Source: an uncultured Spirochaetaceae bacterium (lineage in GTDB: Bacteria; Myxococcota_A; UBA9160; UBA4427). Taken from it: DNA of 64,000 nucleotides. The notes under the pieces are model-generated. The model did not search any database. It had not been told where the DNA came from and saw only the letters and a list, made by a program, of their open reading frames with translations. The DNA is taken from assembly GCA_964488255.1 (NCBI GenBank), contig CAZAUR010000001.1, forward strand, positions 259,244 through 323,243, given 5' to 3'. The position numbers and the translations under genes were made by a program. Shown piece after piece: positions 2,114-27,293 of this stretch (position 1 is its first letter; each line of letters opens with the position of its first letter).

Positions 2114-4332
2114 CCCTCCTCCCGGCGGCCGGTTCGCGAGCGGGGCCTGCGTTGCTCGAAGCGGAGCCGCACCGTGCGGTCGCCGCCCTCGAGCACCGTT
2201 CCCGGGATGGGATGTTGGGACACCACCCGACCCTCGATGGCTCCCAGGGTCGTGATGTCGAGGGACTCACTGGCCGCGAGGCGTCGCGCCCGGGCCATCG
2301 TCGTCCCCTCGAAGTCCGGCACGAAGACGAGGTCGAACGATTCACCCGAGCGGGCTGTCCGCTCGCGTGACGCTTCCAGTCGCCGTGTCGCTGGCGCCGG
2401 GCGTCGCAAGTCGGAAGGTCCCGCCGCCACCTCGAGGGTGGCGGCGGGACGGGCCGGGGGGGCCGCGACAGCCGCGCGAGGCGGCTCTTTTCGTGTGGGC
2501 TTCTTCACCGCGCGAGGCCGGAGGCGCTCGGGCGGCGGCGTGGAGACCGCGGCCAGCTGCGGCGCCGTCTGATCCGTCGACTCGTCCGTCGATTCGCTGT
2601 CGGCGAGCAGGGTCGGGAAGGGCGCCGCCGGGATCGGGGCGGGTCGCGTCGTGATGCCGCGCCGGCCGAGCTGGGCGGCGGCGACGCGCGCGAAGAGCGG
2701 CGCGGCGATGCCGCCACCGCTGTGGAGCGGTCCCTTCGGCTCGTCGACCGCCACGACGATCGCGAGCTCGGGATCGTCGGCGGGCACGACGCCGATGAAC
2801 CACGCGATGTATCGACTCTTCGAATAGCGTCCGGCCTCGACGTCGAGCTTCTGCGCGGTGCCCGTCTTGCCGGCGACGCGGACGCCTTCGAGGGCGGCGA
2901 GTCGGCCGGTGCCCTCGGCGGACACCACGGTCTGCAGCATGTCGAGGGTGAGGCGCGCAGCGCGCGGGGAGACGGCGCGTCCGTGTGGGCGCACGTCGGT
3001 GGTTCGCCAACCCTCTTCGCCGCGGCGGCGCGCGAGGACGAGACGCGGCTCCATGCGCATGCCGTCGTTCGCGAGGGCACCGAGGGCCGAGGCGAGCTGG
3101 ATGCCGGTGATCGACAGGCCCTGACCGTAGGAGATCGCGGCCTGGTCGACCGGCTGCCAGCCTCGCCAGTCGCGGAGGATGCCCGAGGACTCGAAGGGGA
3201 AGCGCGACCGTGTTCGGGTGCCGAACCCGAATCGCTCGAGGCCCTGATACTGTGCCTCGCGTCCCATCGCCTGGGCGATCAGGACCGCACCGACGTTGCT
3301 CGACACGCGCAGCACGTCGGCGGGGGCCAACACGCCGAAGGGCTTGCGATCCTTGATCGTCTTGCCGCGCACGCGGAGCCGACCTTCGTCGCCGGTGTCG
3401 AAGAGTTGCGCGGGATCGACCGCGCGTGCATCGATCGCGGAGGCGACCAGGAAGGCCTTCATCGTCGAGCCCGCCTCGACCGCATCCGTGAAGGTCCGCG
3501 CGCGCGTCTCGCGATAGTCGAGGGTGCGGAACGCGTTCGGATCGAAGCCCGGCGCTTCGGCGAGGGCGAGCACGTCCCCGCTCTTCGGGTCGAGGGTCAG
3601 CACGAGCCCGCCTTCCGCCTCGCTCGCGTCGACCACGTCCGCGAGCGCGGCTTCGGCGGCGCCCTGCATCGCGGCATCGATCGTGAGGGCGACGTCGCCG
3701 CCTTCGACCTCGCGCAGGTCCGCCCCGTGCAGCGCCAGGGCGCGCCCCTTCGCGTCGCGTTCGATGCGCACCCGTCGCGGCTGTCCCGTCAGCCAGTCGT
3801 TCTCGAGCTGCTCGATCCCGCGGACGCCTTGACCATCGATGTTCGCGAAGCCCAGGAGCGGCGCGGCGAAGGTGCCGGCCGGGTAGGAGCGCCGCGGCTC
3901 GCGGTCGATCCCGACGCCCGGAAGCTCGAGGGCGCGGATGCGCTCCGCCTGCCTCGGTTCGACCCAGCGCGCGATGTAGGTGAAGCCCTGGCGGTTCGCG
4001 ATGCGGCGGGCGATCGCGGTCAGATCGACGTCGAGCACCTCCGCGAGGGCGTGCGCGGTCGCGGCGCGGTCGTCCATCTCGCGCGGCAGCGCGTAGATCG
4101 AAGCCGCTTCGGTCGTGATCGCCAGCTCGCGGCCATGGCGATCGAAGATGGTCCCGCGCGCGGCCGAGAGTCGCTGTTCGGTCTGGATCTGTTGATCGTA
4201 GAGCTCGCGCGCCCGGGTGTGGGCGACCGTGAGATGTGCCGCGCGACCGGCGAGAAGCAGGACGACGGCGAGACCGGTGAGGCGGATCCAGACGATCCGG
4301 CCCGATGCGCGGTCGAGCGCCTGCGACCTCAT
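2110..4332 (-). CDS. ftsI: Peptidoglycan D,D-transpeptidase FtsI (class B PBP) with a P/A/R-rich linker and a C-terminal PASTA-like domain
   Basis: 740-aa ORF with N-terminal TM segment, transpeptidase motifs (AGSTMK, GKTGTA) and dcw position. C-terminal segment VFVPDFEGTTMARARRLAASESLDITTLGAIEGRVVSQHPIPGTVLEGGDRTVRLRF fits the PASTA pattern. Confidence 0.9.
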   Translation of the reverse strand: MRSQALDRASGRIVWIRLTGLAVVLLLAGRAAHLTVAHTRARELYDQQIQTEQRLSAARGTIFDRHGRELAITTEAASIYALPREMDDRAATAHALAEVLDVDLTAIARRIANRQGFTYIARWVEPRQAERIRALELPGVGIDREPRRSYPAGTFAAPLLGFANIDGQGVRGIEQLENDWLTGQPRRVRIERDAKGRALALHGADLREVEGGDVALTIDAAMQGAAEAALADVVDASEAEGGLVLTLDPKSGDVLALAEAPGFDPNAFRTLDYRETRARTFTDAVEAGSTMKAFLVASAIDARAVDPAQLFDTGDEGRLRVRGKTIKDRKPFGVLAPADVLRVSSNVGAVLIAQAMGREAQYQGLERFGFGTRTRSRFPFESSGILRDWRGWQPVDQAAISYGQGLSITGIQLASALGALANDGMRMEPRLVLARRRGEEGWRTTDVRPHGRAVSPRAARLTLDMLQTVVSAEGTGRLAALEGVRVAGKTGTAQKLDVEAGRYSKSRYIAWFIGVVPADDPELAIVVAVDEPKGPLHSGGGIAAPLFARVAAAQLGRRGITTRPAPIPAAPFPTLLADSESTDESTDQTAPQLAAVSTPPPERLRPRAVKKPTRKEPPRAAVAAPPARPAATLEVAAGPSDLRRPAPATRRLEASRERTARSGESFDLVFVPDFEGTTMARARRLAASESLDITTLGAIEGRVVSQHPIPGTVLEGGDRTVRLRFEQRRPRSRTGRREEG

Positions 4333-4898
4333 CGCCCGCCCTCCGCGTTCGGCGCCGGGGTGCGCAAGCCCGGCGGCGGCGCGGCGACCGCGGGCAACGG
4401 GAGGGCGCCTTCTTCGCTGAGCGCCGCGCGTGCGAAGCCGCGCGTGAGGGGGACGTCGCCCGCCGGGTCGGTCGTCGCGCGCGGTCCCGGCATCGGGTCC
4501 ACGAGCGCGATCACACGCTCCGCCGGCCGGTAGCCGCGCTCCCGCGCGAGCGCGGCGAGCACCGAGGGATCGCGCAACGCGCGCAGACGCACGATCAACG
4601 CGCGCTGTTCTTCGATCAGGGCCTGTTCCTGGCCGAGGCTCGCCGCTACGGCATAACGCGTGCGGATCAGGTCGATGCGCAGGGACGCGACGCAGAGGGC
4701 GACCACGAGGGCGAGGGCGACCAGGGGCACGAGCGTGCGCGACCGGGGCGCGCCCCGGAAGCGCGCGAGGTCGACGCCGATCCAGGTGTGTCGCTCGATC
4801 GGTTCTTCCGGCTCCCTGCGGCGCGACGCCTTCTGCGCCGCGCGGCCGGCGCGATGGAGGCGCGCGCGTTCCCGGCGATCGTAGGTCGAGGCGCTCAT
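4329..4898 (-). CDS. ftsL: FtsL-like cell division protein (single-pass membrane protein)
   Basis: Internal ATG at 4898 (MSASTYDRRE...) forms an ATGA overlap with the rsmH stop. One TM segment (LVPLVALALVVALCVASL) followed by a helical region. Sits between rsmH and ftsI. The longer 233-aa ORF start would overlap rsmH. Confidence 0.55.
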   Translation of the reverse strand: MSASTYDRRERARLHRAGRAAQKASRRREPEEPIERHTWIGVDLARFRGAPRSRTLVPLVALALVVALCVASLRIDLIRTRYAVAASLGQEQALIEEQRALIVRLRALRDPSVLAALARERGYRPAERVIALVDPMPGPRATTDPAGDVPLTRGFARAALSEEGALPLPAVAAPPPGLRTPAPNAEGGR

Positions 4899-5857
4899 GC
4901 CGCCTCCCGCCTGCGCGCTGCGCGCAGACGCGCGGAGCGGGCGCGCGGGTTGCGCTCGGTCTCGTCGTCGTTCGGCACGACCGGGCGGCGTGTCAGGATC
5001 TCGAGGGTCGGCACGCGGCCGCAGCGGCATTCCGGAAACGACGGCGGGCAGGAGCAGCCCTTGGCCTCGCTCCGGAAGGTCTGCTTGACGAGGCGATCCT
5101 CGAGGCTGTGATAGGCGATGGCGGCGAGGCGTCCGCCCGGACGCAGCACGCGAATCGCGGCCTGCAGCCCGTCTTCGAGCGCGCCGAGCTCGTCGTTCAC
5201 GGCGATCCGGAGCGCCTGGAAGACCAGCGTCGCCGGGTTGTGCCGGCGGCCGCGGCCGATGCCGAGCTCTCCGATCAGGTCCACGAGATCCGCCGCGGTC
5301 TCGAAGGGCGCTGCCTCGCGCCGCGCGACGATCGCCTTCGCGAGCCTGCGAGAACCCGGGAGCTGGCCGTACTCCGAGAAGATCTTCTCGAGCGCCTGGG
5401 TGTCGAGGCTGGCGAGGAGTGCTGAAGCCGGGGCGCGATCGCCGTCGCTGTCCATCCGCATGTCGAGCGGGCTCTCGTCCGGCGCGTCACCGAACCGGAA
5501 GCCGCGGGTGGGCTCGTCGAGCTGATGCGAGGAGACGCCGAGGTCGAGGACGATGGCGTCGATCCCGTCCGGCGCGAAATCCGCGGCGACGTCGTCGAGG
5601 CGGCGGAACGAGGACTGGACAAGGCGAACGCGTTCGCCGAATCCGGCCTTCTCGAGGCGGTTTCCGGCCTCCCGGAGCGCTTCCGCGTCGAGGTCGAGTC
5701 CGAGCAGGATACCGTCCGGGCCCGTTCGCTCGAGGATGGCGTGCGCATGGCCGCCGCCGCCGAGGGTGCCGTCGAGGACGACGGCGCCAGGCTGTAGATC
5801 GAGCAGTCCGAGGGTTTCGGCGAGAAGGACGGGTTCGTGGTAGGCCGTGGTCACCAC
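4895..5857 (-). CDS. rsmH: 16S rRNA (cytosine1402-N4)-methyltransferase
   Basis: 320-aa ORF beginning YHEPVLLAETL, with DGTLGGGGHA and DLGVSSHQLD motifs. dcw position. Confidence 0.95.
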   Translation of the reverse strand: MVTTAYHEPVLLAETLGLLDLQPGAVVLDGTLGGGGHAHAILERTGPDGILLGLDLDAEALREAGNRLEKAGFGERVRLVQSSFRRLDDVAADFAPDGIDAIVLDLGVSSHQLDEPTRGFRFGDAPDESPLDMRMDSDGDRAPASALLASLDTQALEKIFSEYGQLPGSRRLAKAIVARREAAPFETAADLVDLIGELGIGRGRRHNPATLVFQALRIAVNDELGALEDGLQAAIRVLRPGGRLAAIAYHSLEDRLVKQTFRSEAKGCSCPPSFPECRCGRVPTLEILTRRPVVPNDDETERNPRARSARLRAARRREAA

Positions 5858-8455: not shown

Positions 8456-9118
8456 TCAGGGCGCGTCCTTGTCGCGAAGCGCCTCTTCGAGTCGCTCCAT
8501 CGCCGTCGCTACGCGCTCGAGGTTCTCGTTCAAGGCATCGAGGTCGCGCTTGCGCGGAATGTCGGAGAGGTTGCGAAGGTCGCTGCGTTCGATCGCGTTC
8601 GAGATCGCGGACTGGATCGACTCGCGCAGGTCCGGGAGTCCCGAGAAGGGGCGTCGCCGGGCGTTTTCGCGCTCTTCGTCGGTCTCGGCGTCCTCATCGC
8701 GCTCGTCGTCACGACGCGCGAAGGGCGAGCGACGTTCGTGTCCCTCTGCTTCGTCCCAGCCGAATCCGCGACCGACCCCGGGCGGGTTGTCGACGAATTG
8801 CTTGAAGCGATCCTGGAACTCGCCGAGTCCATCCGTCGCCTCGTCGACGCTCTTCTTGATCGCACCGTAGAGCGCGTCGCCGCCGCGGGAGAGGATCTGC
8901 GTCAGGAGCGTGTCGGACGGATCTTCCTTGTCGCGCTGGTTGCCGACGAGGATCTGGGAGAGCGCCACGCGCGTGATGTCCTCGCCCGTCTCCTTGTCGA
9001 CGACGCGGACCTCCTCGCCTTCGTCGAGGAGCTTCGCAATCCCCTTCAGCGTGATGTAGCGGCTCGTCTCGGTGTTGTAGAGCTTACGGTTGGCATACCG
9101 CTTGATGAGGATCGCCAT
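8456..9118 (-). CDS. phaR: Polyhydroxyalkanoate synthesis repressor PhaR
   Basis: N-terminus MAILIKRYANRKLYNTETSRYITLKGIAKLLDEGEEVRVVDKETGEDIT is the characteristic PhaR DNA-binding domain. Confidence 0.85.
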   Translation of the reverse strand: MAILIKRYANRKLYNTETSRYITLKGIAKLLDEGEEVRVVDKETGEDITRVALSQILVGNQRDKEDPSDTLLTQILSRGGDALYGAIKKSVDEATDGLGEFQDRFKQFVDNPPGVGRGFGWDEAEGHERRSPFARRDDERDEDAETDEERENARRRPFSGLPDLRESIQSAISNAIERSDLRNLSDIPRKRDLDALNENLERVATAMERLEEALRDKDAP

Positions 9119-9711: not shown

Positions 9712-10938
9712 TCACGCCTGCGCTCCGTCGAAGAGCTCTTCGCCGATGCGCTGGAGCCCGGCGAGTCCATCGATGTCCCGATCCCGCTCGGCGACGAGAT
9801 GGAAGCCGACGTCGCGTCCGGCGACGCGCCGGGCGATCCGCCGCCGCGTCTCCTCGGCGTCGCGTCGCGCCGTCGCCGCTTCGCGCACGATCTCGTCGAG
9901 CATCGCCGCATCGCGCTCTGCGTCGTCGCCGCCGGTCCGGGCGAGGGCGTCCGCGAGTCGCGCGCGATCCCGAGCGATCGCTTGATCGTCCCCGGGCGAG
10001 AGCCACTCGGTCGCATCGACTTCGTCGGGCCACGGACGGATGCGATTGAGGACGACGGCCGACAGCGGCGCGCCGAGCTCGTCGAGGGCGTCGAGGAACT
10101 CGAGGGTGCCGGGCTCCTGTCCCGATCGCGCGCCGCCCACCAGGACGAAGCGCGTGTCGTCGCCGACGAGGATCTCCTCGACCCGGGACGTGCCCGCCTG
10201 GAACCCGTCGGTCAGGCTCGACACCGCGGAGAGGAACTCCGAGAGGTCGTCGAGGAAGCCGACGCCGGCGATCCGTTCGACCAGCCCCATCATGCGATGG
10301 AGCGACTGCCCGAAGACCTTGAAGCCGAAGCGGCTCGCGGACATCGCCGGGCGGACGAGCGCCTGCACGAAGCGACCCTCGAGGAATTCGCGCAATCGTC
10401 GCGGCGCGGACAGGAAGTCGAGAGCGTGGCTCGCGGGGGGCGTGTCGACGACGACGAGGTCGTAGCGGCCCGACTCGACGGCTTCGCGCACCTGCTCGAG
10501 GGCGGCGTATTCGGCGCTTCCGGCGAGCGCCTCGGAGAGGTGGCGATAGATGCGGTTCTCGAGCACCCGGGCGCGCGTGGCCGCGTCCGGCGCGAGCCGT
10601 TCGACGAGACCGTCGAAGGTCGGCTTGGGGTCGAGCATCATCGCGTCGAGGGGGATCGACCCGGTCTGGCCGTCGGTTCCCGCGATCACGACCGGTGCCG
10701 GATCGGAGCCGAGACCCTCGAGTCCGAGCGCGTCGGCGAGGCGGCGCGCCGGATCGATCGTGAGGACGAGGGTGCGCCGGCCCGCGCGCGCCGCGCGCAG
10801 CGCGAGGGCCGCCGCGACGGTCGTCTTGCCGACGCCACCGGTTCCGGCGCAGATCAGGACCCGCGCGGATTCGAGGGCTTCCTCGAGTCCGACGCCGTCC
10901 CGTCGATTCCCGCGCGCGCCCTTGTTCGCTCGGCTCAT
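9712..10938 (-). CDS. ArsA/Get3-family P-loop ATPase (second of a pair)
   Basis: 408-aa ORF with ICAGTGGVGKTTVAAALALRAA P-loop followed by TIDPARRLADALG. Confidence 0.8.
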   Translation of the reverse strand: MSRANKGARGNRRDGVGLEEALESARVLICAGTGGVGKTTVAAALALRAARAGRRTLVLTIDPARRLADALGLEGLGSDPAPVVIAGTDGQTGSIPLDAMMLDPKPTFDGLVERLAPDAATRARVLENRIYRHLSEALAGSAEYAALEQVREAVESGRYDLVVVDTPPASHALDFLSAPRRLREFLEGRFVQALVRPAMSASRFGFKVFGQSLHRMMGLVERIAGVGFLDDLSEFLSAVSSLTDGFQAGTSRVEEILVGDDTRFVLVGGARSGQEPGTLEFLDALDELGAPLSAVVLNRIRPWPDEVDATEWLSPGDDQAIARDRARLADALARTGGDDAERDAAMLDEIVREAATARRDAEETRRRIARRVAGRDVGFHLVAERDRDIDGLAGLQRIGEELFDGAQA

Positions 10939-11927
10939 GCGGCACTCGCTCCCGCGCGATCCGCTTCGGGCCAGACGGGTTCGTCGAGCACGCGGTGCGC
11001 CTCGGTCTCCCAGCCGCTGCCCGCTTCGGCGCCGAGCGCGAGGACGGGCAGGTCGACGACCGGGAGATCGCAGGCGGCCGACACCCGTTCGCGTTCCCGC
11101 GCGGCGAGGGTGGCGCGGGCGTGGGCATGTTCGACGAGGCCGGAGAGCGCGGTGCGCGACGGCCAGGCCTCGAAGTCGAGATCGGCGGACGGGTTCGCGA
11201 GGACGTCGCGAAGCGCGTCGGTCGGGGCGGGCGGGCAGCGGTTCACGACGATGCGATCGACGCCGATGTCGATGTCGCTGCGGGCGCGCGCGACGAGCTC
11301 GATCGTCTCCCGGACCGGCAGCTCTTCAGGCAGCGTGACCGGCAGCAGCACCGTCCGCTCGCGGTCGTGCACCAGCGCTTCGACCCAACCGGCGTGCCGC
11401 GCGAGCGGTCCTGCGCGGACGGTCTGCTGCGCGACCCGCGGCACGTCCAGGAAGGTGAGGCCGTGTCCGGTCGCGGGCGCATCGACGACGATCAGGTCGT
11501 AGGTCGGTCGCCCGCGCCGATCCGTGCTCTGCTCTACGTGCCAGAGCTTTCCGAGCAGGATCAGCTCGCGCCATCCCGGGGCGGCCTCGAGCAGCTGGCG
11601 GAAGGTCTCGCTGCCGAGGATGCGGTCGGTGACGAGGCCGAGGCGGGTCTGGAGACGCACGTAGTGGGCGAGGGCCTCGTGCGGGTCGATGCGAATCGCG
11701 TCGAGGTCCGGCCGCAGCGTTCGGCCCTCGTATCCGAGCAGATCCGGGTCGCGCTCGAAGCGCGCGGCGGCGGACTCGATCGGGTCGGTCTCGGCGAGCA
11801 GGACGCGCTGGCCCTCGCGTCGGGCGGCCTCCGCGAGCAGGCAGGCGACGGTGGTCTTCCCGACGCCGCCCTTGCCAGTCACGATGATCAGCCGGTGGTC
11901 GAGCAGGGGCCGGACAGGGGCCGTCAT
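10935..11927 (-). CDS. ArsA/Get3-family P-loop ATPase (first of a pair)
   Basis: 330-aa ORF with IIVTGKGGVGKTTVACLLAEAA P-loop, then ETDP and DAPATGH motifs. 4-nt overlap with the downstream paralogue. Confidence 0.8.
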   Translation of the reverse strand: MTAPVRPLLDHRLIIVTGKGGVGKTTVACLLAEAARREGQRVLLAETDPIESAAARFERDPDLLGYEGRTLRPDLDAIRIDPHEALAHYVRLQTRLGLVTDRILGSETFRQLLEAAPGWRELILLGKLWHVEQSTDRRGRPTYDLIVVDAPATGHGLTFLDVPRVAQQTVRAGPLARHAGWVEALVHDRERTVLLPVTLPEELPVRETIELVARARSDIDIGVDRIVVNRCPPAPTDALRDVLANPSADLDFEAWPSRTALSGLVEHAHARATLAARERERVSAACDLPVVDLPVLALGAEAGSGWETEAHRVLDEPVWPEADRAGASAA

Positions 11928-14163: not shown

Positions 14164-15513
14164 ATGGCAATCTTCAAGGCCTACGACATCCGGGGCGTCG
14201 TCCCGGATGACCTGGATCACAACAAGGCTTACGCCATCGGCCGCGCCATCGGCGCGTGGCTGGGCGAGGGCCCGATCGCGGTCGGTCGCGACGCGCGGGT
14301 GCACTCGCCGGAGATCGCCGGCGCCCTCGTCGACGGGATCCGGGACGAGGGCATCGACGTCCAGGACCTCGGCCTCGTCGCGACGCCGATGCTCTACTTC
14401 GGTGTCGACCAGTTGGGCTCAGCGGCCGGTGTGATGGTGACCGCCTCGCATAATCCCGGCGAGTACAACGGGTTCAAGATCTGCCGTGCGCACGCGGTCC
14501 CGGTCGGCGAGGACAGCGGGCTCAAGGAGATCGAAGCGCTCGTCGAATCGCGCGCGAAGGCGCCGGCAGCGGCTTCACGCGGTTCCATTTCCGATCACGA
14601 CGTGATCGAGGGTTACCGCGATCACGCGCTCGCGGTCGGCGAGCATCGTCCGCCCCTCAAGGTCGCGATCGATTGCGGCAACGGCATGGCGAGCGTCGGG
14701 CTGCGCCCGGTACTCGATGGGCTGCCGATCGACGTCGTCGAGCTCTACTTCGAGCCGGACGGCACCTTCCCGAACCACGAGGCCGACCCGCTGAAGGTCG
14801 AGAACCTGAAGGACGTCGCCGAGGCCGTGCGCCGCGAAGGGGCCGATCTCGGCGTCGCATTCGACGGCGACGGTGATCGAGCGGTCTTCGTCGACGGAAC
14901 GGGCGAGCCCGTCTCCGCCGACCTCGCGACGGCCCTCATCGCCCGACGCATGCTCTCCCGGGAGCCGGGCGCGCGCGTGCTCTACGACCTGCGGTCGAGT
15001 CGCGTCGTCGCTGAAGAGGTCGAACGCGCCGGGGGCGTCGCCGGAATGTGCCGCGTCGGTCACTCGTTCGTGAAGGCGCAGATGCGGGAAGAGGGCGCGA
15101 TCTTCGCGGGCGAGCTCTCGGGGCATCTCTACTTCCGGTTCTCGAAGGACCTGATCGCCGACGACGGTACGGCGGCCCTGGTCGCGTTGCTCGACGTGCT
15201 CGGTGCCGAGGGTCGATCGCTCGCGGAACTCGTGGCGCCGCTTCGATGTTATTCGGCGAGCGGTGAGATCAATCGGCGCGTCGCAGACACCGATCACGTG
15301 ATCGAGACGATCGCGGGTGAATACGCCGAGGCGCCCGAGACCTCGCGTCTCGATGGCCTGCTCGTCCGCTACCCGACCTGGTGGTTCAACATCCGCGCCT
15401 CGAACACCGAGCCGGTCCTGCGTCTGAATCTCGAGGCGGACACCGCCGAGGAGATGGAGCGGCGTCGGGACGAGATCCTCGGTCGGATCGAGGCGCTTGG
15501 CGAAGGTCGATGA
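14164..15513 (+). CDS. Phosphomannomutase/phosphoglucomutase
   Basis: 449-aa ORF with FKAYDIRG, the active-site loop TASHNPGEYNGFK, and GDGDR. Confidence 0.9.
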   Translation: MAIFKAYDIRGVVPDDLDHNKAYAIGRAIGAWLGEGPIAVGRDARVHSPEIAGALVDGIRDEGIDVQDLGLVATPMLYFGVDQLGSAAGVMVTASHNPGEYNGFKICRAHAVPVGEDSGLKEIEALVESRAKAPAAASRGSISDHDVIEGYRDHALAVGEHRPPLKVAIDCGNGMASVGLRPVLDGLPIDVVELYFEPDGTFPNHEADPLKVENLKDVAEAVRREGADLGVAFDGDGDRAVFVDGTGEPVSADLATALIARRMLSREPGARVLYDLRSSRVVAEEVERAGGVAGMCRVGHSFVKAQMREEGAIFAGELSGHLYFRFSKDLIADDGTAALVALLDVLGAEGRSLAELVAPLRCYSASGEINRRVADTDHVIETIAGEYAEAPETSRLDGLLVRYPTWWFNIRASNTEPVLRLNLEADTAEEMERRRDEILGRIEALGEGR

Positions 15514-17214: not shown

Positions 17215-17997
17215 CTACTTGAGCAGCAGCTTGCGCGTGCGGTAGAGCGTCGACTTGACCGCGTCTTCCGACTTCGAGAGCGTCCGAGCGATTTCCGCGA
17301 TCGGCATCGACTCGAGGTGGTGCATCTCGAAGAGCCGTCGCTGCTCGGGCGTGATCTCGCTTTCGAGCACGCGGTCCAGACGCGAGGCGCGCTCGACCAT
17401 CTCGTAGTTCTCGAGCGGGGTGGCTTCCGGGGCGCTGCCCGCGGTCAGGCTCGTGTACGCGACGTCCTCGTCCTCCTCGAAGAGCGGGACGGTGGGGTGG
17501 CGCTTCTTGCGGAACCGCGCTGCCAGGGTTCGGCGGGTGAGTCCGAAGATCCACGCGGCGAAGGGCGCGTCGCCGCGGAAACCGTCGATCGACGAGAAGA
17601 TGTTGATGAACACCTCCTGGGTCGTCTCTTCGGTGTCGGCGCGGTTGCGCAGGCGCTTGTCCAGGAACGCGTAGACGCGTTTGAAATAGCGCTGGTAGAT
17701 CTCGTCGAAGGCCGCGCGATCGCCGGCGCGGATCTGATCGACCAGCTCCTCGTCGGAGACCGGGTTCGGGTCGCGGGGGACGCGACGCGCACTGGTGACC
17801 GAAGACGGGGCTGCGTCGAGATCCGACGAATGTCGGATTCCCTCTCGCGCCTCTACCGCCTCGCTGGCTCCGCTTGTACTGCTGCTGGTGCTCAAAAGCC
17901 GATTCCTTCGGGCTCCGCCGATCCTCACCGCGTCTCCGACTCGCTCGCCGGAAACCTCTTTGGGGGGTGCGAAGCCGGGTCCCCATCCCCTACTCAT
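17215..17997 (-). CDS. RNA polymerase sigma-70 family (ECF-type) sigma factor
   Basis: Region 2 (DEELVDQIRAGDRAAFDEIYQRYFKRVYAFL...TQEVFINIF) and region 4 (ITPEQRRLFEMHHLESMPIAEIARTLSKSEDAVKSTLYRTRKLL). The N-terminal ~85 aa are low complexity, so the true start is uncertain. Confidence 0.8.
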   Translation of the reverse strand: MSRGWGPGFAPPKEVSGERVGDAVRIGGARRNRLLSTSSSTSGASEAVEAREGIRHSSDLDAAPSSVTSARRVPRDPNPVSDEELVDQIRAGDRAAFDEIYQRYFKRVYAFLDKRLRNRADTEETTQEVFINIFSSIDGFRGDAPFAAWIFGLTRRTLAARFRKKRHPTVPLFEEDEDVAYTSLTAGSAPEATPLENYEMVERASRLDRVLESEITPEQRRLFEMHHLESMPIAEIARTLSKSEDAVKSTLYRTRKLLLK

Positions 17998-18277
17998 GGG
18001 ACCCTTGGTGTCCGCGGCTCGCCGCCGCGGCTATTTCGAACGGTTCTCCTGTCCTCATTGCCCCGGATGGCCCAGTCCCGTCCGGAGTTTCCCCCCATTT
18101 AGCTTGTTGCCCGCAGACATGGCGGGGTGTCAGAATTTGTCACCCACACCGCGGATTTACCGGAAATCGTCACTCGTTCCCGCAGGGGTACCGGTGTCCG
18201 CGATTGTGACGGGGACTCAGCTGGACGGGCCGGCGGCGCACGTCGGGTGACCTCCAGCGGTTCGCGACGAGGTTCCG

Positions 18278-18943
18278 TCACGAGGCGACCGGGGCTCCGG
18301 GCGCGTCCCAGCCGTGGCTGAGCGGCGGCTCCGTCCGCAGGTCCACCTCCCGGAGCCCGGTCCGAAAGGCGGAAGGGCTGGGCGGGTCGGTGAGCGGCGA
18401 TGCGTCGAGGTCCGCGACCGCGGCGGAAGAGGTCGCGCCGGGCGCCCAGGGCGAGGGGCCCGACTTGCGCGGCTCGAGCAGGAGCGCGAGCTGCCCCTGC
18501 TGACGAGCGGGGCGGTACCGGGTCAGCGCGAGCCGGCCCTCACCGAGGACCGAACCGACCTGATCGGCGGCGGCGACCACCTCGGCATCGAAGGTCGGCG
18601 CCAGGAGCTGGCAGCGCGGCTGGGCGAGCTCGCTCATGCCGAGCTCCGGCGCGAGCTTTCGCAGGTCGGCGACCCGCGGTGCGATCCAGCCGAGGTCCGA
18701 GAGGCCCTGGGCGAGCAATCGCGCGCCGCCCTCGTCGCGTTGGCCGCCCTCGATCGGCGGCTGCGCTCGGATGCAGATCAGCTCGCCGGCCTCACCGATC
18801 GCGAGCAGGTCGATCGGCGTCGACTGGCCCAGGAAGCCCTCGGCGATCACCCGCCAGCCGGGCGCGAGTCGTCGCAGCGCGAGCCGGAGCGCGCGTCGTA
18901 GCGACGCCGGCTCGATCGGGCCCCGCCACTCGAGCTCAGCCAA
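18278..18943 (-). CDS. Hypothetical protein, last gene of the MerR/ParA operon (possible degenerate PD-(D/E)xK-like fold)
   Basis: 221-aa ORF with an 8-nt overlap with the upstream gene. The segment PIDLLAIGEAGELICIRAQ resembles the D...(E)xK core of NucS/DUF91-like proteins but lacks the acidic and Lys residues. Confidence 0.45.
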   Translation of the reverse strand: MAELEWRGPIEPASLRRALRLALRRLAPGWRVIAEGFLGQSTPIDLLAIGEAGELICIRAQPPIEGGQRDEGGARLLAQGLSDLGWIAPRVADLRKLAPELGMSELAQPRCQLLAPTFDAEVVAAADQVGSVLGEGRLALTRYRPARQQGQLALLLEPRKSGPSPWAPGATSSAAVADLDASPLTDPPSPSAFRTGLREVDLRTEPPLSHGWDAPGAPVAS

Positions 18944-19841
18944 GGACCCGGCTCCGGGCGTCCTCGTACAACAATCGCGCGACGTCCATCAGCGCCCGGG
19001 CGGCGGGCGATTGCGGGTGAGCGAGGCCGACCGGCCGCTGCGCTGCGATCGCGCGGTAGACGTGGAGGTCGTCCACGAGCAGGCCGTACGAGATCAACGT
19101 TCGTGCCGACTCGGCCTCCGTTCGGCGGGCGAGGGCGTCGTAGGCGTCCCGCGCCTCGCCGATCGACTCGACCCCGTGCAGCGTGACACCCAGCTCGAGG
19201 ACGGAGTGCCGCGCGTAGAGCGTGCGGGCGAGGGACGCGGTCTCCTCGAGATCCCGCGCCCGGGCGCCGGAGAGCAGCAGCAGCCAGCGGATGGGCTCGA
19301 CCGGGCCGTCGCCCTCGACGAGCCAATCGGGCGGGACGCGCACGAAGACGATGCCGCCACGGCGGGCGTCCGTCGCCATGCGCGTGGCCAGCTCCGAGGC
19401 GGTCTCGTAGAGGCTCGCCAGGTCCTTGGCCGGGCAGAAGAGCAGCTCGCATCCGAGGGGACCGACCCCGGGCTCTGGCCAGAGCGGCGAGCCGCGATCG
19501 GTTTCGGGCGCGAGCAGGATCGTCGACGCCCCGAGCCGCGCCGTCTCCACGGCGAGGTTCCAGGCGAGCGCGGCCCGGACCACGTCCCGATCGCCGATCG
19601 GCAGGCCGAGCACCGGCAACGGCGGGCCGGCGGCGGGTCCGGTTCTCGCGTCGTTCCGGGAAGCGCTTCGACCGCGGCCTGCGGTCGTCGTCGGATCGTC
19701 GACCGGCACCTCGACGGACGGCGCGGGCGAGGTCGTTGCGTCCTCGCGGTCCGCACGGGGCGTGTCGGTGGGATCCGCGTCCGGAGTCTCTTCGAGCTCC
19801 GGGAGGAAGTAGTGCAAGACGTCAGCGAGATCGCGCGGCAA
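18936..19841 (-). CDS. MinD/ParA/FlhG-like protein with a degenerate (non-canonical) Walker A
   Basis: 301-aa ORF. LPVLGLPIGDRDVVRAALAWNLAVETARLGASTILLAPE aligns with the KGGVGKT-containing strand-loop-helix of MinD-like ATPases but has GDRDVV. The C-terminal part (YGLLVDDLHVYRAIAAQRPVGLAHPQSPAARALMDVARLL) matches the family. Confidence 0.5.
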   Translation of the reverse strand: MPRDLADVLHYFLPELEETPDADPTDTPRADREDATTSPAPSVEVPVDDPTTTAGRGRSASRNDARTGPAAGPPLPVLGLPIGDRDVVRAALAWNLAVETARLGASTILLAPETDRGSPLWPEPGVGPLGCELLFCPAKDLASLYETASELATRMATDARRGGIVFVRVPPDWLVEGDGPVEPIRWLLLLSGARARDLEETASLARTLYARHSVLELGVTLHGVESIGEARDAYDALARRTEAESARTLISYGLLVDDLHVYRAIAAQRPVGLAHPQSPAARALMDVARLLYEDARSRVLG

Positions 19842-19933
19842 GGCGTCGTCCCTCGAGAGTGGAACCGGTCGGAGCGGCAGTCAGTCCGGCAGGCGCGCTG
19901 CGCCCGACCGGGAGGGGCGCAGCGTGAGGTCGG

Positions 19934-21040
19934 CTAGCGGACGTGCAGGATGGAATTCGGTTGGCCGGTCGGGCCGGGGGCCGTCTGTGGATTGGCCGGA
20001 TCTTCTCGCCACTCGCCGTCGACGACGTATCGGTACTGATAGGTGCCGGGCTCGAGGGTGAGGACCTTGGTCCAGACTCTCTCCTGACCCTCCGATGCGA
20101 TCAGCGATCGGACGCCCCGATCCGGGACCCAGCCGTTGAAGTCGCCCGCGATCCGCACGTCCCCCGCGATCGAGTCCTTGAAGCGCACGACGACTTCCCG
20201 GGGCGGTCCGCCGATCGCGAAGTCTTCGTCCTCCCCCTCCTCGAGGCCGGGCGGTCGTGACGAGAGCTGGTCCGGCGGCGACGCCGCGAGCTCGAGCGCG
20301 ACCGACGCGTAGTCGAGCGCGCCGTTCGCCGACGGGGCGTAGAGTGAGATCGGGACCCCCTGCCGGGCGGCTTCGCGCAGCTTCACGTTCAGTCGGATGA
20401 CCGAGTCGAAGCAGAGCTCCTTGAAGAGCTCGCGGATGTCGCCCAGGGTCTGCCGTGCATAACGCGTCCGGCCATCGTAGAGCGTGGGCAGCACGCGGAC
20501 GTGAAGCTCGTGGCCGATCCGATCCGAGAGCAGGCTGATCGTCTCGAGCAGCTTCTGAACGCCGTCGATCGCGAAGAAGCTCGTCTCGAGGGGGACGACC
20601 ACTTCGGTCGCAGCGCGCAGCGCGTTGAAGGTGAGCAGCCCGACGTTCGGCGGACAGTCGATCAGCACGTAGTCGTAGAGCGGCGGCAGCGTGTCGATCG
20701 CCGCGGCCAGACGCTCGGTGCGCGCATCGTGCCGCTCGGTGGCGAGCTTCTGCTCGAGGGCCGAGAGCACGATGCTCGACGGCGCGATGTCGATCTGGTC
20801 GGAGACGTCGATGATGACCGAGTCCATCCGACTCGCGCCCGAGGGTTCGACGAGCACCTCGTAGAGGTTCGCGTCGAGGTCGTCCGGCTCGAGGCCGACG
20901 GCGAGCGTCGCATGGGCCTGCGGGTCCATGTCGACGATCAGGACCCGGTTGCCGTCTGCAGCCAGGGCGCCTGCCAGGTTGACCGTGGTGGTGGTCTTCC
21001 CGCAGCCGCCCTTCTGATTCACGATGGCGATGATCCGCAT
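19934..21040 (-). CDS. ParA/Soj-family ATPase fused to a C-terminal CBM48/AMPK-beta-type glycogen-binding-like domain
   Basis: Internal ATG at 21040 gives MRIIAIVNQKGGCGKTTTTVNLAGALAADGNRVLIVDMDPQAHAT (deviant Walker A). The C-terminus VRIAGDFNGWVPD...WTKVLTLEPGTYQYRYVVDGEWREDPANP fits the CBM48/E-set pattern. Confidence 0.8.
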   Translation of the reverse strand: MRIIAIVNQKGGCGKTTTTVNLAGALAADGNRVLIVDMDPQAHATLAVGLEPDDLDANLYEVLVEPSGASRMDSVIIDVSDQIDIAPSSIVLSALEQKLATERHDARTERLAAAIDTLPPLYDYVLIDCPPNVGLLTFNALRAATEVVVPLETSFFAIDGVQKLLETISLLSDRIGHELHVRVLPTLYDGRTRYARQTLGDIRELFKELCFDSVIRLNVKLREAARQGVPISLYAPSANGALDYASVALELAASPPDQLSSRPPGLEEGEDEDFAIGGPPREVVVRFKDSIAGDVRIAGDFNGWVPDRGVRSLIASEGQERVWTKVLTLEPGTYQYRYVVDGEWREDPANPQTAPGPTGQPNSILHVR

Positions 21041-21172
21041 CACGTCCCCCCCGAAACGTTTCACCGACGCCCGGATGGGCTCGGCCTGCGATCTGTGGCG
21101 CCGGGCTCGAGACCCGGCTTCGCGCCGGATCCCCCCGACCCGACGCGACACGTCAGAGGGGCTGGCCTTCGG

Positions 21173-21772
21173 TCAGCCGGTCCGACTCCAATCCTTGATC
21201 CGGTCCTTCCGTTCCGGACGTGCTCCACGCGGTCCGGGCTTCTCGGGCAAGCCCGAAGCCCCGGCCGCGTTCTCGACATCATCCAGCGAATCTGCGCCGA
21301 TCGCCACCGGGCCAAAGCCGGACGCTGCATCGGCGCGACTCCCGGCACGGTAGGCCGAGACTTCGCGCTCGAAATCCGCGACCTCGAAGACCCATTCCTG
21401 GCCTGTGATCGCTTCGAAGACGGTGTCGTCCTGGAAGACGAGGACGACGTCACCGGTCGCGACGAGAACCAGCTCGGAGAGCGGTCGTCCGACCTGCGGA
21501 AGCAGCTCCTGGAGCGCGCGGACGCTCTTGCGGATCTTCTGGACGGACACGCCCGCGTCGATCAGTCGTTTGGTCGCCTTCAGGGCGACGAGGTCGTCGA
21601 AGCTGTAGCGGTGGTGACCGCCGGGCGTCCGCTCCGACGGCTCGATCAGGCCGGTCTTGGCCCAGTATTGGAGCTGCCGTCTCGACAGATCCAGCAGATC
21701 GACGACTTCTCGCGTCTTGAACTGCGCTCGCACCACTTCCGACGACTCCCCCGCTCGACTCGACTGCGACAC
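21173..21772 (-). CDS. MerR-family transcriptional regulator
   Basis: The HTH FKTREVVDLLDLSRRQLQYWAKTGLIEPSERTPGGHHRYSFDDLVALKATKRLIDAGVSVQKIR is typical of MerR. The C-terminal domain is not recognised. Confidence 0.8.
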   Translation of the reverse strand: MSQSSRAGESSEVVRAQFKTREVVDLLDLSRRQLQYWAKTGLIEPSERTPGGHHRYSFDDLVALKATKRLIDAGVSVQKIRKSVRALQELLPQVGRPLSELVLVATGDVVLVFQDDTVFEAITGQEWVFEVADFEREVSAYRAGSRADAASGFGPVAIGADSLDDVENAAGASGLPEKPGPRGARPERKDRIKDWSRTG

Positions 21773-22205
21773 CGGCCCCCCTCAGCTGTCCGACTGCCGT
21801 CGCGGGCACCCGGACCGTCCTGCTCTGTGATGGCGTCGCACCGCCTGGCGCGCCCGACGCTCGTTGCCCTGTCGAACGCTCGGACCGCGGTCGCGCCCCG
21901 AACCTTCGACCCGGCTTGCCCGGTCAGGCGGGGCCCACGACAACGGCGGCGCGTCGCGGTCGCATGGATCGTTTCGGGGGGTCACCGTCGCCACTGGCCC
22001 CCGGGGTTCACCCGGGTGTCAGCGAGAACATCCAGAGTAAATGAGGGGCTTCGTCTCAAGTCAAGCCAAAACCCGGGGGAATTGTCGCGATGAGGGTGAA
22101 AAACATTTCTGTCCTCCGGACTGTGCCCTAGACACTCGCGCCGCGAGTGTGACCGTTGTGGTCCAGCCTCGTGCCGACACCGACCCATGGCTGTAAGGTC
22201 GCGCC

Positions 22206-23513
22206 GTGGCTGGAGATCCCGATCAGAATGGAAGCGCCTCCGAAGACGCGACGACGGGCGGTGGTGAAGAGGCAGATGCCCCTGGGGGTACCTTGTCCCG
22301 CTTCGTGACGCACGTCGGCGATCCCCTCGGTGACGACGACGACGCCGAAGAGATCGCGGCCAGCCTCACGCGGTTGCGCGTCGCCGCCGGTGACGAACAG
22401 CGTCCTTTCATGCGCGGGATCATGGTCGCCTCGCTGACCGAACGGGGTCTCGCCTTCGAGGACGCCTACGAAGTCGCGCAGGCGGTCTGGCGCCGGCTGC
22501 GCGGTCGAAGCCTGGTCGAGAAGTCAGAGCTCGCGGCCCTCGTCGACGAGATCATCGACGCCAGCGCGCGCCCGGGATACCGGCGCCCGACCTCCGCCGC
22601 CGAGCCCGTCCTCGACGTGCTCGGGAAGGACGGTCGCTGGCCCTTCAATCAAGGGCGACTCCAGCAGAGCCTGCTCGCGGCGGGCCTCAAACCGAGCCAG
22701 GCCTTCGCCGCGGTGCTCGAGATCGAGCGGGAGCTGCGCGAGAGCGGCGACGCGAACGTCACCCGCGATGCGTTGCGCGATCAGGTGGCAGAAATCCTGC
22801 GCGAGCAGGTCTCGACGACGGCGGCCGATCGCTACCTGGCCTGGCGCTCCTTTCACGCGGAGGACGAACGGCCGCTGATCCTCCTGCTCGGCGGCACGAC
22901 CGGCGTCGGCAAGTCGACCCTCGCTCTCGAGGTCGCGCGCCGCCTCGCGATCGGTCGGCTGCTCTCGACCGACTCGATCCGCGACGTGATGCGCGTGATG
23001 CTCTCCGACGACCTGGTCCCGACCCTGCACGTGTCGTCCTTCGAGGCGCACAGCCGACTCGTGAACCCCGTCGAGCACGGTGAAGACCGGGTCATCGAGG
23101 GCTTCCTCGAACAGTCTCGGACGGTCTCGGTCGGCGTTCGGGCCGTGATCGAGCGCGCGATCGTCGAAGGCACGAGCACCGTCCTCGACGGCGTCAGTCT
23201 CGTCCCCGGCCTCTTCGATCCCGCCGAGTGGCGTGATCGCGCCCACGTGTTCTTCCTGCTGGCGGCGGACGAGGACCGCGAGTCCCTCCACAGCCACCTG
23301 ATCGCCCGGGCCCACGGCAAGGGCGCGCGGGCCTCGGAGCGCTACGTGCGCAACTTCCAGGGCATCTTCACGATCCAGTCGGACCTGCTGCAACGCGCCG
23401 CTGATTCGGGGATCCCGGTCGTCGACGTGCAGGATCTCGACGGCGCGGCGCGGCGGGTGGTGAAGCACATCGTGGACCGTCTCGGAGAGCGCCGCGCGGC
23501 CGAGCGCGGCTAG
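22206..23513 (+). CDS. 2-phosphoglycerate kinase-like P-loop kinase with N-terminal ATP-cone-like region
   Basis: 435-aa ORF with P-loop ILLLGGTTGVGKSTLALEVARRL followed by STDSIRDVMR. ATP-cone-like segment RPFMRGIMVASLTERGLAFEDAYEVA. The GTG start is uncertain. Confidence 0.6.
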   Translation: MAGDPDQNGSASEDATTGGGEEADAPGGTLSRFVTHVGDPLGDDDDAEEIAASLTRLRVAAGDEQRPFMRGIMVASLTERGLAFEDAYEVAQAVWRRLRGRSLVEKSELAALVDEIIDASARPGYRRPTSAAEPVLDVLGKDGRWPFNQGRLQQSLLAAGLKPSQAFAAVLEIERELRESGDANVTRDALRDQVAEILREQVSTTAADRYLAWRSFHAEDERPLILLLGGTTGVGKSTLALEVARRLAIGRLLSTDSIRDVMRVMLSDDLVPTLHVSSFEAHSRLVNPVEHGEDRVIEGFLEQSRTVSVGVRAVIERAIVEGTSTVLDGVSLVPGLFDPAEWRDRAHVFFLLAADEDRESLHSHLIARAHGKGARASERYVRNFQGIFTIQSDLLQRAADSGIPVVDVQDLDGAARRVVKHIVDRLGERRAAERG

Positions 23514-26603: not shown

Positions 26604-27293
26604 GTGGACGAGATCCCCCGGCAGCTCTCGATCGATCAGTGTTTCGTGCATCGCCGCGCGCCTTCGCGCCGACGCAAGAAGCCCGGACGAAAGCCCGCGC
26701 CGCGAGCGCGCGTGTTGCACCGAAAGCGGGTGGCGGTTCGGAAGGAGCACCCGGTTCATGTGACCCTTCGGATGCGTCGGGACGTGCCGTCTCTTCGCAA
26801 CCCGCGCTGGCTGCGCGCGTTTCGCGAGACGCTCGGACGTGGCTGTGAGCGCGGGGACTTCCGCGTGGTCCACTACTCGGTCCAGCGCGATCACATCCAC
26901 ATGATCGTGGAGGCCGCCGGCAAGCAGGCGCTCGCCTCGGGGATGAAGAGCATCGGCTCGAGGGTCGCTTTGGCCGTGAATCGTGTGTTCCATAGGAAGG
27001 GGCGCGTCCTGGACGGGCGCTTCCACTCGGTCGTGCTCGGGACGCCCACGCAAGTGCACCGAGCGCTGCGGTACGTCCTGCTCAACGAACGCAAGCACCG
27101 CCGCCAGAGAGGCGAACGACTCAGCAAGAGTACGACCGCCGACCCGGCCTCGTCCGGCCGCTTCTTCGACGGCTGGAAGGAGAGGCTCAAAGCCGCCGTG
27201 CCAACCGAAGTCGCCCGCCCCCGCTCCTGGCTACTCACGAGAGGCTGGAGGAGGGGCGGCAATCCGATCTCCCTCTCGGAAGTCCCGGGCTGA
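26604..27293 (+). CDS. IS200/IS605-family Y1 (HUH) transposase-like protein, REP-associated tyrosine transposase (RAYT)-like
   Basis: 229-aa ORF with HUH motif DHIHMIVEA and Tyr motif ALRYVLLNERKH. Preceded by a locally AT-richer intergenic stretch (26480-26600). Confidence 0.8.
   Translation: MDEIPRQLSIDQCFVHRRAPSRRRKKPGRKPAPRARVLHRKRVAVRKEHPVHVTLRMRRDVPSLRNPRWLRAFRETLGRGCERGDFRVVHYSVQRDHIHMIVEAAGKQALASGMKSIGSRVALAVNRVFHRKGRVLDGRFHSVVLGTPTQVHRALRYVLLNERKHRRQRGERLSKSTTADPASSGRFFDGWKERLKAAVPTEVARPRSWLLTRGWRRGGNPISLSEVPG

Follow-up and report, generated by a model that had tools for sequence, protein, structure and literature searches.

What purpose could be served by joining an ATPase of the chromosome-partitioning type to a module of the glycogen-binding type? 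The question is raised by a 64,000-nucleotide stretch of DNA, hereafter the window, from an uncultured Spirochaetaceae bacterium placed by GTDB in the Myxococcota_A (assembly GCA_964488255.1, contig CAZAUR010000001.1, positions 259,244 to 323,243). The ParA/MinD ATPases are the general placing device of bacteria, serving chromosomes, plasmids, carboxysomes, chemoreceptor arrays, flagella and the divisome. We know of no ParA/MinD system for glycogen, the most widespread bacterial carbon store, and to our knowledge the spacing and inheritance of glycogen granules are essentially unstudied. In the window, which has a G+C content of about 70% and whose near-identical proteins bear names pointing to an uncultured marine Myxococcota genome, four genes encode a MerR-type protein, a ParA ATPase with a C-terminal carbohydrate-binding module (CBM), here called ParA-CBM, and two further proteins, prot3 and prot4. 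The ParA-CBM locus defines a multi-phylum ParA subfamily covalently joined to such a module, with a partner set that is recognisable by a ParB-like peptide and includes a pseudo-ATPase scaffold. We suggest, tentatively, that the operon tethers or positions glycogen granules.

The gene for ParA-CBM occupies 19934-21040 on the minus strand, as do all features of the operon given below, and encodes 368 amino acids beginning with MRIIAIVNQKGGCGKTT. Its N-terminal part (20276..21040) is a ParA/Soj-type ATPase domain, which matches the Pfam families AAA_31 (4e-51) and CbiA (1.4e-21) and whose best relatives in the PDB are the ParA 8RAY (1e-46) and the Soj of H. pylori, 6IUB. The deviant Walker A motif KGGCGKTT is intact, as an earlier note on this DNA had stated, and is accompanied by the Walker A' motif VDMDPQ and the Walker B motif LIDCPP. 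Among 48 diverse fusions with a mutual identity of only 36-54%, the K, G, G, G, K and T of the signature-lysine Walker A are invariant, as are the aspartates of Walker A' and B (D38, D40 and D129). The arginine for non-specific DNA binding, equivalent to R189 of B. subtilis Soj and found here in the motif DGRTR, is kept in 44 of the 48. Additionally, the cleft for the ParB peptide is conserved and reads DCPPNVGLL. It aligns to the segment DCPPSLGLL of M. xanthus ParA, in which L150, G151 and L152 contact ParB1-20 (PMC12462528). Judged by these motifs, ParA-CBM is a catalytically intact Soj-like ATPase, and its ATP-bound dimer is predicted to bind DNA non-specifically.

An acidic flexible linker (about 20168-20275) leads from the ATPase domain to the C-terminal module (19940..20167), which had earlier been assigned to the CBM48/AMPK-beta type from its residue pattern. 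Domain and structure-database searches bear out this assignment. The module reaches 43.3 bits for the family AMPK1_CBM (PF16561), where 26.8 is the gathering cut-off (E 4.3e-11), CBM_48 (PF02922) being sub-threshold at 16.6 bits, and in a sequence search of the PDB the module aligns end to end with the CBM of AMPK beta2 (4Y0G, 1e-7) and beta1 (1Z0M/1Z0N) and with SEX4 and LSF1. The sugar-contact residues are also conserved: the equivalent of AMPK beta W100 is W and that of K126 is K or R in all 48 fusions, the equivalents of W133 and G147 are W and G in 47 each, and that of N150 is N or D in 45. Such constraint argues for real glycan binding, and the CBM of ParA-CBM would be expected to bind glycogen.

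The earlier note had read this gene as an open reading frame (ORF) of 405 amino acids. While the Walker A motif and the CBM stand, the longer frame does not, being an upstream GTG extension of the 368-residue protein. The true start is the ATG at 21040 (MRIIAIVNQKGG...): every homologue begins with this methionine, which has an invariant ribosome-binding site with a G-run just before it. This leader (21041..21063, AACGYYTC-GGGGGGG-ACGTN, with the G-run as Shine-Dalgarno sequence) abuts the ATG and is unchanged in 19 loci at 82-94% ParA identity. A possible hairpin of 7 bp that encloses the G-run was given by RNAalifold. The only changes in it are C-to-U wobbles, and compensatory pairs are absent; since there is no covariation, it is left as an observation.

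The remaining genes are closely spaced. The MerR gene (21173-21772) encodes 199 amino acids from its longest start, the start called by JGI being 21736, and is separated from ParA-CBM by 132 nucleotides. After a further 92 nucleotides ParA-CBM is followed by prot3 (18936-19841, 301 amino acids), which overlaps prot4 (18278-18943, 221 amino acids) by exactly 8 nucleotides. All four ORFs agree with the genes called by JGI on a contig of identical sequence, and both the co-directional arrangement and the overlap are as first described.

This gene order is conserved well beyond the window. It was followed in a prot3-anchored set of 80 metagenome loci with 43-69% identity, counting only those with enough flanking DNA. 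A ParA that reaches the end of the CBM lies upstream of prot3 in 65/65 loci, prot4 lies downstream of prot3 in 65/65, and the MerR gene lies upstream of ParA in 34/34. Because the neighbours are constant in every informative locus, the genes form an obligate set, and the chance neighbourhood that had been considered a possibility is not borne out. The full order of MerR, ParA-CBM, prot3 and prot4 recurs in Gammaproteobacteria at about 40% ParA identity, namely in Thiogranum, Thiohalobacter and an unclassified metagenome-assembled genome (MAG). In genomes, the MerR gene is directly upstream of ParA-CBM in 12 loci, which comprise those of the Myxococcota and four of the Gammaproteobacteria, and both MerR domains are conserved.

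The fusion itself was traced in two further searches. In a set with one genome per species, ParA-CBM has at least 596 relatives, in about ten phyla. The best 80 of these all carry the CBM and span the Myxococcota, Omnitrophota, Planctomycetota, Zixibacteria, Eisenbacteria, Rokubacteria, Gemmatimonadales, Vicinamibacterales, Desulfobacterota and Gammaproteobacteria. When 1.8 billion cluster representatives were searched exhaustively, nearly all of the top 150 (35-56% identity) combined KGGCGKT with a C-terminal GDFNxW...VDGxW, in proteins of varying linker length and up to about 700 amino acids. The cluster members that were inspected all come from MAGs or metagenomes and are named just "AAA family ATPase" or "chromosome partitioning protein". 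The literature that was searched does not describe the fusion, in keeping with the earlier impression that this is not a characterised system. On the evidence of these sequences, the fusion family is large, multi-phylum and uncharacterised. Iterated profiles run on the ORFs of 82 ParA-CBM loci placed a prot3-like gene directly downstream of ParA-CBM in 36 and a prot4-like gene in 29, distant phyla included; these counts are estimates, as iterated hidden Markov models may drift. The compared ParA-CBM loci are labelled with L-numbers. One of them, L081 (JAKPSJ010000023.1), has the full set of ParA-CBM, prot3-like and prot4-like genes on a 3-kb contig binned as 'Methanobacteriota archaeon'. A binning error is likelier than an archaeal instance because the identity to bacterial proteins is 39%.

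The partner proteins indicate how the ATPase might be controlled. Prot3 matched nothing in a Pfam search. Its AF2 model, with a predicted local distance difference test score (pLDDT) of 83, was related by Foldseek to FlhG (4RZ2), FleN (5J1J), MinD (1HYQ) and Soj (2BEK), with E-values from 7e-11 to 1e-8 and a probability of 1.0, which supports a SIMIBI fold. In this pseudo-MinD/FlhG-like domain (18939..19625), Walker A is replaced by IGDRDVVRAA, and GK[ST] is absent from the P-loop in an alignment of the window and its clade. Only distant members of the prot3 family, among them L076, L064, L023 and L024, retain GKT/GKS; L076, L064 and L024 also pass Pfam CbiA/ParA. The body of prot3 therefore appears, from its modelled fold, to be a nucleotide-dead MinD/FlhG-type scaffold.

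The N-terminus of prot3 carries the peptide MPRDLADVLHYFLPE (19797..19841), a candidate for ParA binding and activation of its ATPase. Seven of its residues (R3, D4, L5, D7, V8, H10 and F12) do not vary among 34 homologues, and it leads into a linker that is variable and disordered, with pLDDT below 50. The ParA-binding motif at the N-terminus of ParB consists of hydrophobic residues around a central R/K, and a 20-residue ParB peptide suffices for ParA binding and ATPase stimulation (PMC12462528). The prot3 peptide fits this published description. In other phyla the same N-terminal position is held by (K/R)LGRGLEDxSHLFLS, of which MPRDLADVLHYFLPE is the form found in the window; MPRDLADVLHYFLPE and KLGRGLEDVSHLFLS are both candidate activator peptides. 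On the simplest reading, the prot3 peptide would be the activator of ParA-CBM.

This peptide changes two points of the earlier note. The description of prot3 as an ATPase-dead MinD/FlhG-like paralogue holds for the fold and for the loss of GK[ST], but with the peptide present the pseudo-MinD is better read as a scaffold for an activator peptide than as a simple dead paralogue. Similarly, it had been stated that no parB or parS partner is present. No ParB homologue was found in the window or in the 82 ParA-CBM loci (tblastn with B. subtilis Spo0J), and no canonical parS site within 3 mismatches was found in the window, but a ParB-type element does exist in the LG(R/K)GL-like N-terminal peptide of prot3.

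Prot4 also gave no match in a Pfam search. Its AF2 model (pLDDT 85) was related by Foldseek to EndoMS (5GKE), the C-domain of NucS (2VLD) and XisH (2INB), with E of about 4e-4 and a probability of 1.0; the template modelling score is only 0.36 because of a disordered tail. A distant homologue of prot4 in L017 has a weak Pfam match to NucS_C (2e-3). The NucS_C-like domain (18464..18943) has the PD-(D/E)xK fold and is catalytically degenerate, as had been proposed for this 221-residue protein. Only the first catalytic aspartate, D45, is invariant, and the E-x-K positions read R-A-Q in the window and vary across the family. By these residues prot4 is a dead PD-(D/E)xK fold, and its model suggests that it is probably either DNA-binding or oligomeric.

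Several observations connect prot4 with prot3. After a variable linker, prot4 ends in the tail motif LTDPPSPSAFRTGLREVDL (18338..18394), a candidate docking peptide for prot3, in which F193, R194, L197 and L202 are invariant. This acidic tail reads FRTGLxDADL in the window and L[ST]xEE..F elsewhere. It is present in 21/21 loci in which prot3 is a separate gene and gone (0-9 amino acids) in 7/7 loci whose NucS_C-like domain forms one protein with prot3 or, directly, with the SHLFLS peptide. In the Planctomycetota, prot3-like and prot4-like parts form a single ORF in L046 (2744-4240) and L073 (9154-10707) and, marginally, in L066 (9277-10683). The fused ORF of L066 gave weak results in hhalign with profiles from the Myxococcota only (E 0.03 and 6e-4), and the profiles were therefore rebuilt solely from loci with prot3 and prot4 as separate genes. 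With these, the two parts scored 5e-13 and 8e-7 in L046, 2e-11 and 4e-4 in L073, and marginally in L066. The simplest reading is that prot3 and prot4 work together, with prot4 recruited to prot3 through its tail. In two further loci (L067 4415-6097 and L075 3018-4451), a prot3-like N-terminal half is joined to a long C-terminal extension that matches no profile.

Across lineages, the peptide (K/R)LGRGLEDxSHLFLS heads proteins of quite different kinds. Besides pseudo-MinD proteins, these include NucS_C-like proteins that carry it directly, without prot3 (L045, L047, L055 and L056), a helix-turn-helix (HTH) protein in L053 and a RodZ-like membrane protein in L058. As far as can be judged from these arrangements, the SHLFLS-type peptide is modular and mounted on differing scaffolds by lineage. 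The NucS_C-like domain appears to be the core and more general partner domain, with the pseudo-MinD linking the peptide and prot4 non-covalently. The Desulfobacterota-type loci (L058 1614-2969 and L053 9080-9526, both on the plus strand) have the peptide at the head of an HTH_17/MerR-like protein, which in L058 is prolonged by a coiled-coil region, a transmembrane segment and RodZ_C.

Genes of glycogen metabolism lie near the fusion in several lineages. A second type of neighbourhood, in about 21 loci assigned to the Omnitrophota or "Planctomycetales", is without prot3 and prot4 and has a GH57 gene (Pfam 5e-63) upstream of ParA-CBM in 12-13 of them. In L058, a bona fide GlgB gene (3050-5269, minus strand) is the convergent neighbour of the gene for the RodZ-like partner. 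A PGM/PMM gene lies within 5 kb of the fusion in the Myxococcota clade, including the window (14164-15513), and another is near the fusion in the Sedimentisphaerales locus L067. Because of clade synteny, these neighbours amount to only about five independent lineages. The GH57 and GlgB neighbours in other phyla are thus suggestive of a link to glycogen, not decisive. Loci of the second type (among them L018, L020, L022, L025, L026, L028, L031, L033, L037, L052 and L062) share other features. Immediately upstream is a 191-residue membrane protein with the conserved N-terminus MTRDEIYDHLAxVYLGKR and a weak CBM_11 match, and farther upstream are the GH57 gene and the gene for an Alginate_exp porin. 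On the downstream side, the fusion is followed by a DUF4870-like membrane protein and by a protein rich in lysine, about 140 residues long, with a barrel like domain 2 of EF-Tu.

The reading that we favour is that the ParA-CBM operon is an ATP-switched tether or positioner of glycogen granules, which would link them to the nucleoid or another landmark. We rate it as somewhat less likely than not, yet as the most likely of the readings considered. In this mechanism, the flexible acidic linker would join the ATPase permanently to the CBM, and the ATP-bound dimer of ParA-CBM would bridge a glycogen granule, held through the CBM, and DNA or a landmark defined by the partners. Prot3 would display its ParB-like peptide on the long disordered linker, prot4 would dock on prot3 through its conserved acidic C-terminal tail, and the partner peptide would trigger ATP hydrolysis and release. 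Cycles of attachment and release might then distribute or anchor the granules, so that they are inherited rather than aggregated.

A number of points weigh against this proposal. The AF2 models of prot3 and prot4 are monomers. Binding of glycan and of DNA, the contact of the peptide with ParA, that of the tail with prot3 and the role in the cell are all inferred. CBM48-type domains can double as protein-docking modules, as in AMPK, and it is the fold by itself that suggests DNA binding by prot4. The partner set is not universal, since 45 of the 82 ParA-CBM loci have neither prot3 nor prot4. In the window, tblastn with GlgB and GH57 and a Pfam search of 20 further proteins brought up no glycogen gene other than PGM/PMM, and the linkage to GH57 and PGM may partly be clade synteny. 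Finally, in characterised ParA cargo systems it is the adaptor, not the ATPase, that binds the cargo. Were the ATPase to be bound to the cargo and its activator perhaps to DNA, the outcome of this hypothetical geometry would not obviously be positioning as opposed to simple tethering.

A bolder form of the proposal sees in the ParA-CBM48 systems an ATP-driven machinery devoted to partitioning or positioning granules of stored polysaccharide, the first of its kind, with a polarity inverted relative to all known ParA systems. The ATPase would sit on the cargo through the CBM, and the activator peptide would sit on a DNA-bound or fixed landmark, which may be the pseudo-MinD with the dead PD-(D/E)xK protein, an HTH protein or a RodZ-like protein. 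The machinery would be ancient and multi-phylum, extending over the Myxococcota, Planctomycetota, Omnitrophota, Gammaproteobacteria, Acidobacteriota, Gemmatimonadota and others. In this full form the claim is doubtful.

The most serious rival gives a larger part to the MerR protein. Its N-terminal winged HTH matches Pfam MerR_1 (3.9e-15) and MerR (7.9e-10). The C-terminal domain of about 70 residues, described earlier as unrecognised, indeed matches no Pfam family; it is beta-rich (LSELVLVATGDVVLVF...GQEWVFEV) and conserved from Myxococcota to Gammaproteobacteria. Against NCBIfam the protein gave only sub-threshold matches (CarH, HspR and RacA), with equivalogs far below their cut-offs. It could be either the regulator of the operon or a further DNA-bound component. 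About 290 nucleotides upstream of the MerR start lies a promoter-like box (22035..22064), TTGACT-18 nt-TTACTC, a distance that implies a long leader. The box recurs in relatives as TTGACTTGA...CCCCTCATTTACTTA, and as TTGACT-18-TACGCT in more distant loci; it was found in L099, L100, L101, L106, L115, L007, L139, L143, L148 and L150, and its spacer is sometimes palindromic (L148: CCCGCGATCGCGGG). A generic scan of 17800-22300 for sigma-70 promoters and terminators flagged none, and the box surfaced only through the comparison of loci. Transcription of the operon probably begins there.

These features are compatible with a sensor of glycogen status, in which glycogen, as with the CBM of AMPK beta, would on binding sequester or free ParA-CBM, and ParA-CBM would in turn control a DNA-bound factor (MerR or prot4) or the initiation of replication. 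Gene expression or the cell cycle would then follow the level of the carbon store, without any movement of granules. By analogy, FleN controls FleQ and Soj controls DnaA. A sensor would account for the co-transcription of a MerR-type HTH gene in two phyla, for FlhG and FleN, which regulate transcription factors, being the nearest structural relatives of prot3, and for the fusion of the partner peptide to an HTH domain in L053 and L058; tight control of the operon is likewise suggested by the promoter-like box and the leader, both of which are conserved. However, MerR is missing from most ParA-CBM loci outside the Myxococcota and Gammaproteobacteria, there are no evident target genes, and the variety of scaffolds (pseudo-MinD, NucS_C-like and RodZ-like) suits a landmark for localisation better than one fixed target. 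We consider a sensor unlikely.

Somewhat less credible is the possibility that the cargo is not glycogen. The CBM48-like domain would then dock a protein or other ligand, and what the system places on the nucleoid would be an unrelated cargo or a divisome-type landmark, in the manner of PomXYZ. The AMPK beta CBM is known to make protein contacts as well, the window has no glg gene, the presence of two partners for one ParA recalls PomX and PomY, and one partner is RodZ-like. Yet the sugar-contact residues are conserved across phyla beyond what would be expected of a pure protein interface, GH57 and GlgB genes are neighbours in other lineages, and the best relatives of the module in sequence include the starch-binding SEX4 and LSF1.

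Improbable, too, is an organiser resembling BcsQ, in which the ATPase would localise or scaffold enzymes for alpha-glucan synthesis or export while the CBM holds the nascent polymer. The Omnitrophota-type loci, which join the fusion with GH57, the small membrane protein with the weak CBM_11 match and the Alginate_exp porin, would fit such a role, as would a match of ParA-CBM to CBP_BcsQ. The latter is generic (1e-9), however, and far weaker than the matches to Soj/ParA, the porin linkage is limited to one clade, and no synthase or exporter occurs in the window or in the loci of the Myxococcota or Gammaproteobacteria.

An ordinary partition or defence module is largely refuted and may be set aside, for although the ParA domain is most like chromosomal ParA/Soj and prot4 has a nuclease fold, a chromosomal Soj, which the earlier note had named as an alternative, is rejected by the lack of ParB in the window and in 82 loci, and of parS, a skew switch or origin genes in the window, by the dcw/ffh/ccm core region and by the CBM that is always present; a plasmid or phage (prophage) ParA by the housekeeping flanks with conserved synteny and a CBM without tblastn match in 72,556 plasmids; and an ATPase-nuclease system against phage by the loss of the nuclease residues and by PADLOC, which gave only generic HTH and P-loop matches and nothing for prot3 or prot4.

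The wider window places the operon among housekeeping genes, its flanks including dcw genes, ffh, rlmN, trmB and ccm, and the synteny of the flanks is kept in a relative with 85% ParA identity. Divergent from the operon is a gene (22206-23513, plus strand) for a 435-residue ATP-cone protein whose C-terminal half is P-loop kinase-like; it adjoins the operon throughout the Myxococcota clade (41-69% identity, L002-L013) and not outside it. At 8456-9118 (minus strand) is a PhaR-type regulator of polyhydroxybutyrate (PHB) accumulation (PHB_acc_N, 4e-25). It adjoins tandem ArsA/Get3-like ATPase genes (9712-11927, minus strand), that is, a second pair of SIMIBI ATPases, near a storage-granule regulator, and the trio is also found in the relative L002. 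An ORF with a weak match to Y1 (IS200-like/REP-associated) tyrosine transposases lies between metallophosphatase and SLT-LysM genes (26604-27293, plus strand); it is present in the window and L001, whereas the syntenic relative L002 lacks it there. Scans for repeats, centromere-like arrays, Rfam families and tRNAs gave nothing of note.

Beyond the earlier note, the analysis adds the ParB-like peptide, its interchangeable scaffolds, the coupling of prot3 and prot4 and the spread over many phyla. The operon may, if the function proposed for it is right, be the first machinery dedicated to organising bacterial glycogen granules. Should the mechanism be true, it would represent a new geometry for ParA, in which the cargo carries the ATPase and a landmark the activator, and it would link carbon storage to the organisation of the nucleoid. 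Even if granule positioning proves wrong, a peptide carried on interchangeable scaffolds is a clear case of modular evolution among ParA activators.

Comparison with known systems shows which parts are familiar. The system shares with ParABS a Soj-type deviant Walker A ATPase (8RAY and 6IUB being nearest), which keeps the arginine for non-specific DNA binding and the ParB-peptide cleft; the unstructured N-terminal peptide of its partner, a candidate for binding ParA, resembles LG(R/K)GLxALL. In contrast to ParABS, there is no ParB/Srx CTPase domain and no parS, the peptide is borne by a pseudo-MinD, dead PD-(D/E)xK, HTH or RodZ-like protein, and the ATPase itself bears a polysaccharide-binding module. 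Like McdAB, ParC-ParP and PpfA-TlpT, it would be an orphan ParA-family ATPase for a non-DNA cargo in the cytoplasm, with a small dedicated adaptor encoded alongside. There, however, the cargo is bound by the adaptor and the ATPase binds only the nucleoid, whereas here the putative cargo-binding domain is on the ATPase; furthermore, McdA is without the signature lysine that ParA-CBM keeps. PomXYZ of Myxococcus xanthus is likewise from the Myxococcota and combines one ParA-like ATPase with two co-encoded partners, one of which activates through an N-terminal peptide. However, PomX and PomY, which mark the site of division, are scaffolds built of coiled coils or HEAT repeats, and PomXYZ has no CBM, pseudo-ATPase or PD-(D/E)xK protein.

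The individual domains also have known relatives. The CBM belongs by sequence to the fold family of AMPK beta and the CBM48 domains of SEX4 and LSF1, with the same glycan-contact constellation of Trp, Lys, Trp and Asn, but theirs is attached to a kinase scaffold or phosphatase and this one to a ParA ATPase. Prot3 has the fold of FlhG, FleN and MinD by Foldseek but not their Walker A, and prot4 has that of the NucS/EndoMS C-domain without the E-x-K pair or the N-terminal domain of NucS. NucS docks a partner, the sliding clamp, via a short C-terminal tail, and the prot4 tail would be similar in this respect. PhaM and PhaF link PHB granules to the nucleoid, so that the granules are shared between daughter cells. 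They offer a functional analogy only, being passive bifunctional binders without an ATPase cycle and without homology to the ParA-CBM system. Overall, ParA-CBM is best classed among the ParA/MinD positioning systems, and its geometry, with the putative cargo-binding domain on the ATPase, is unusual for them.

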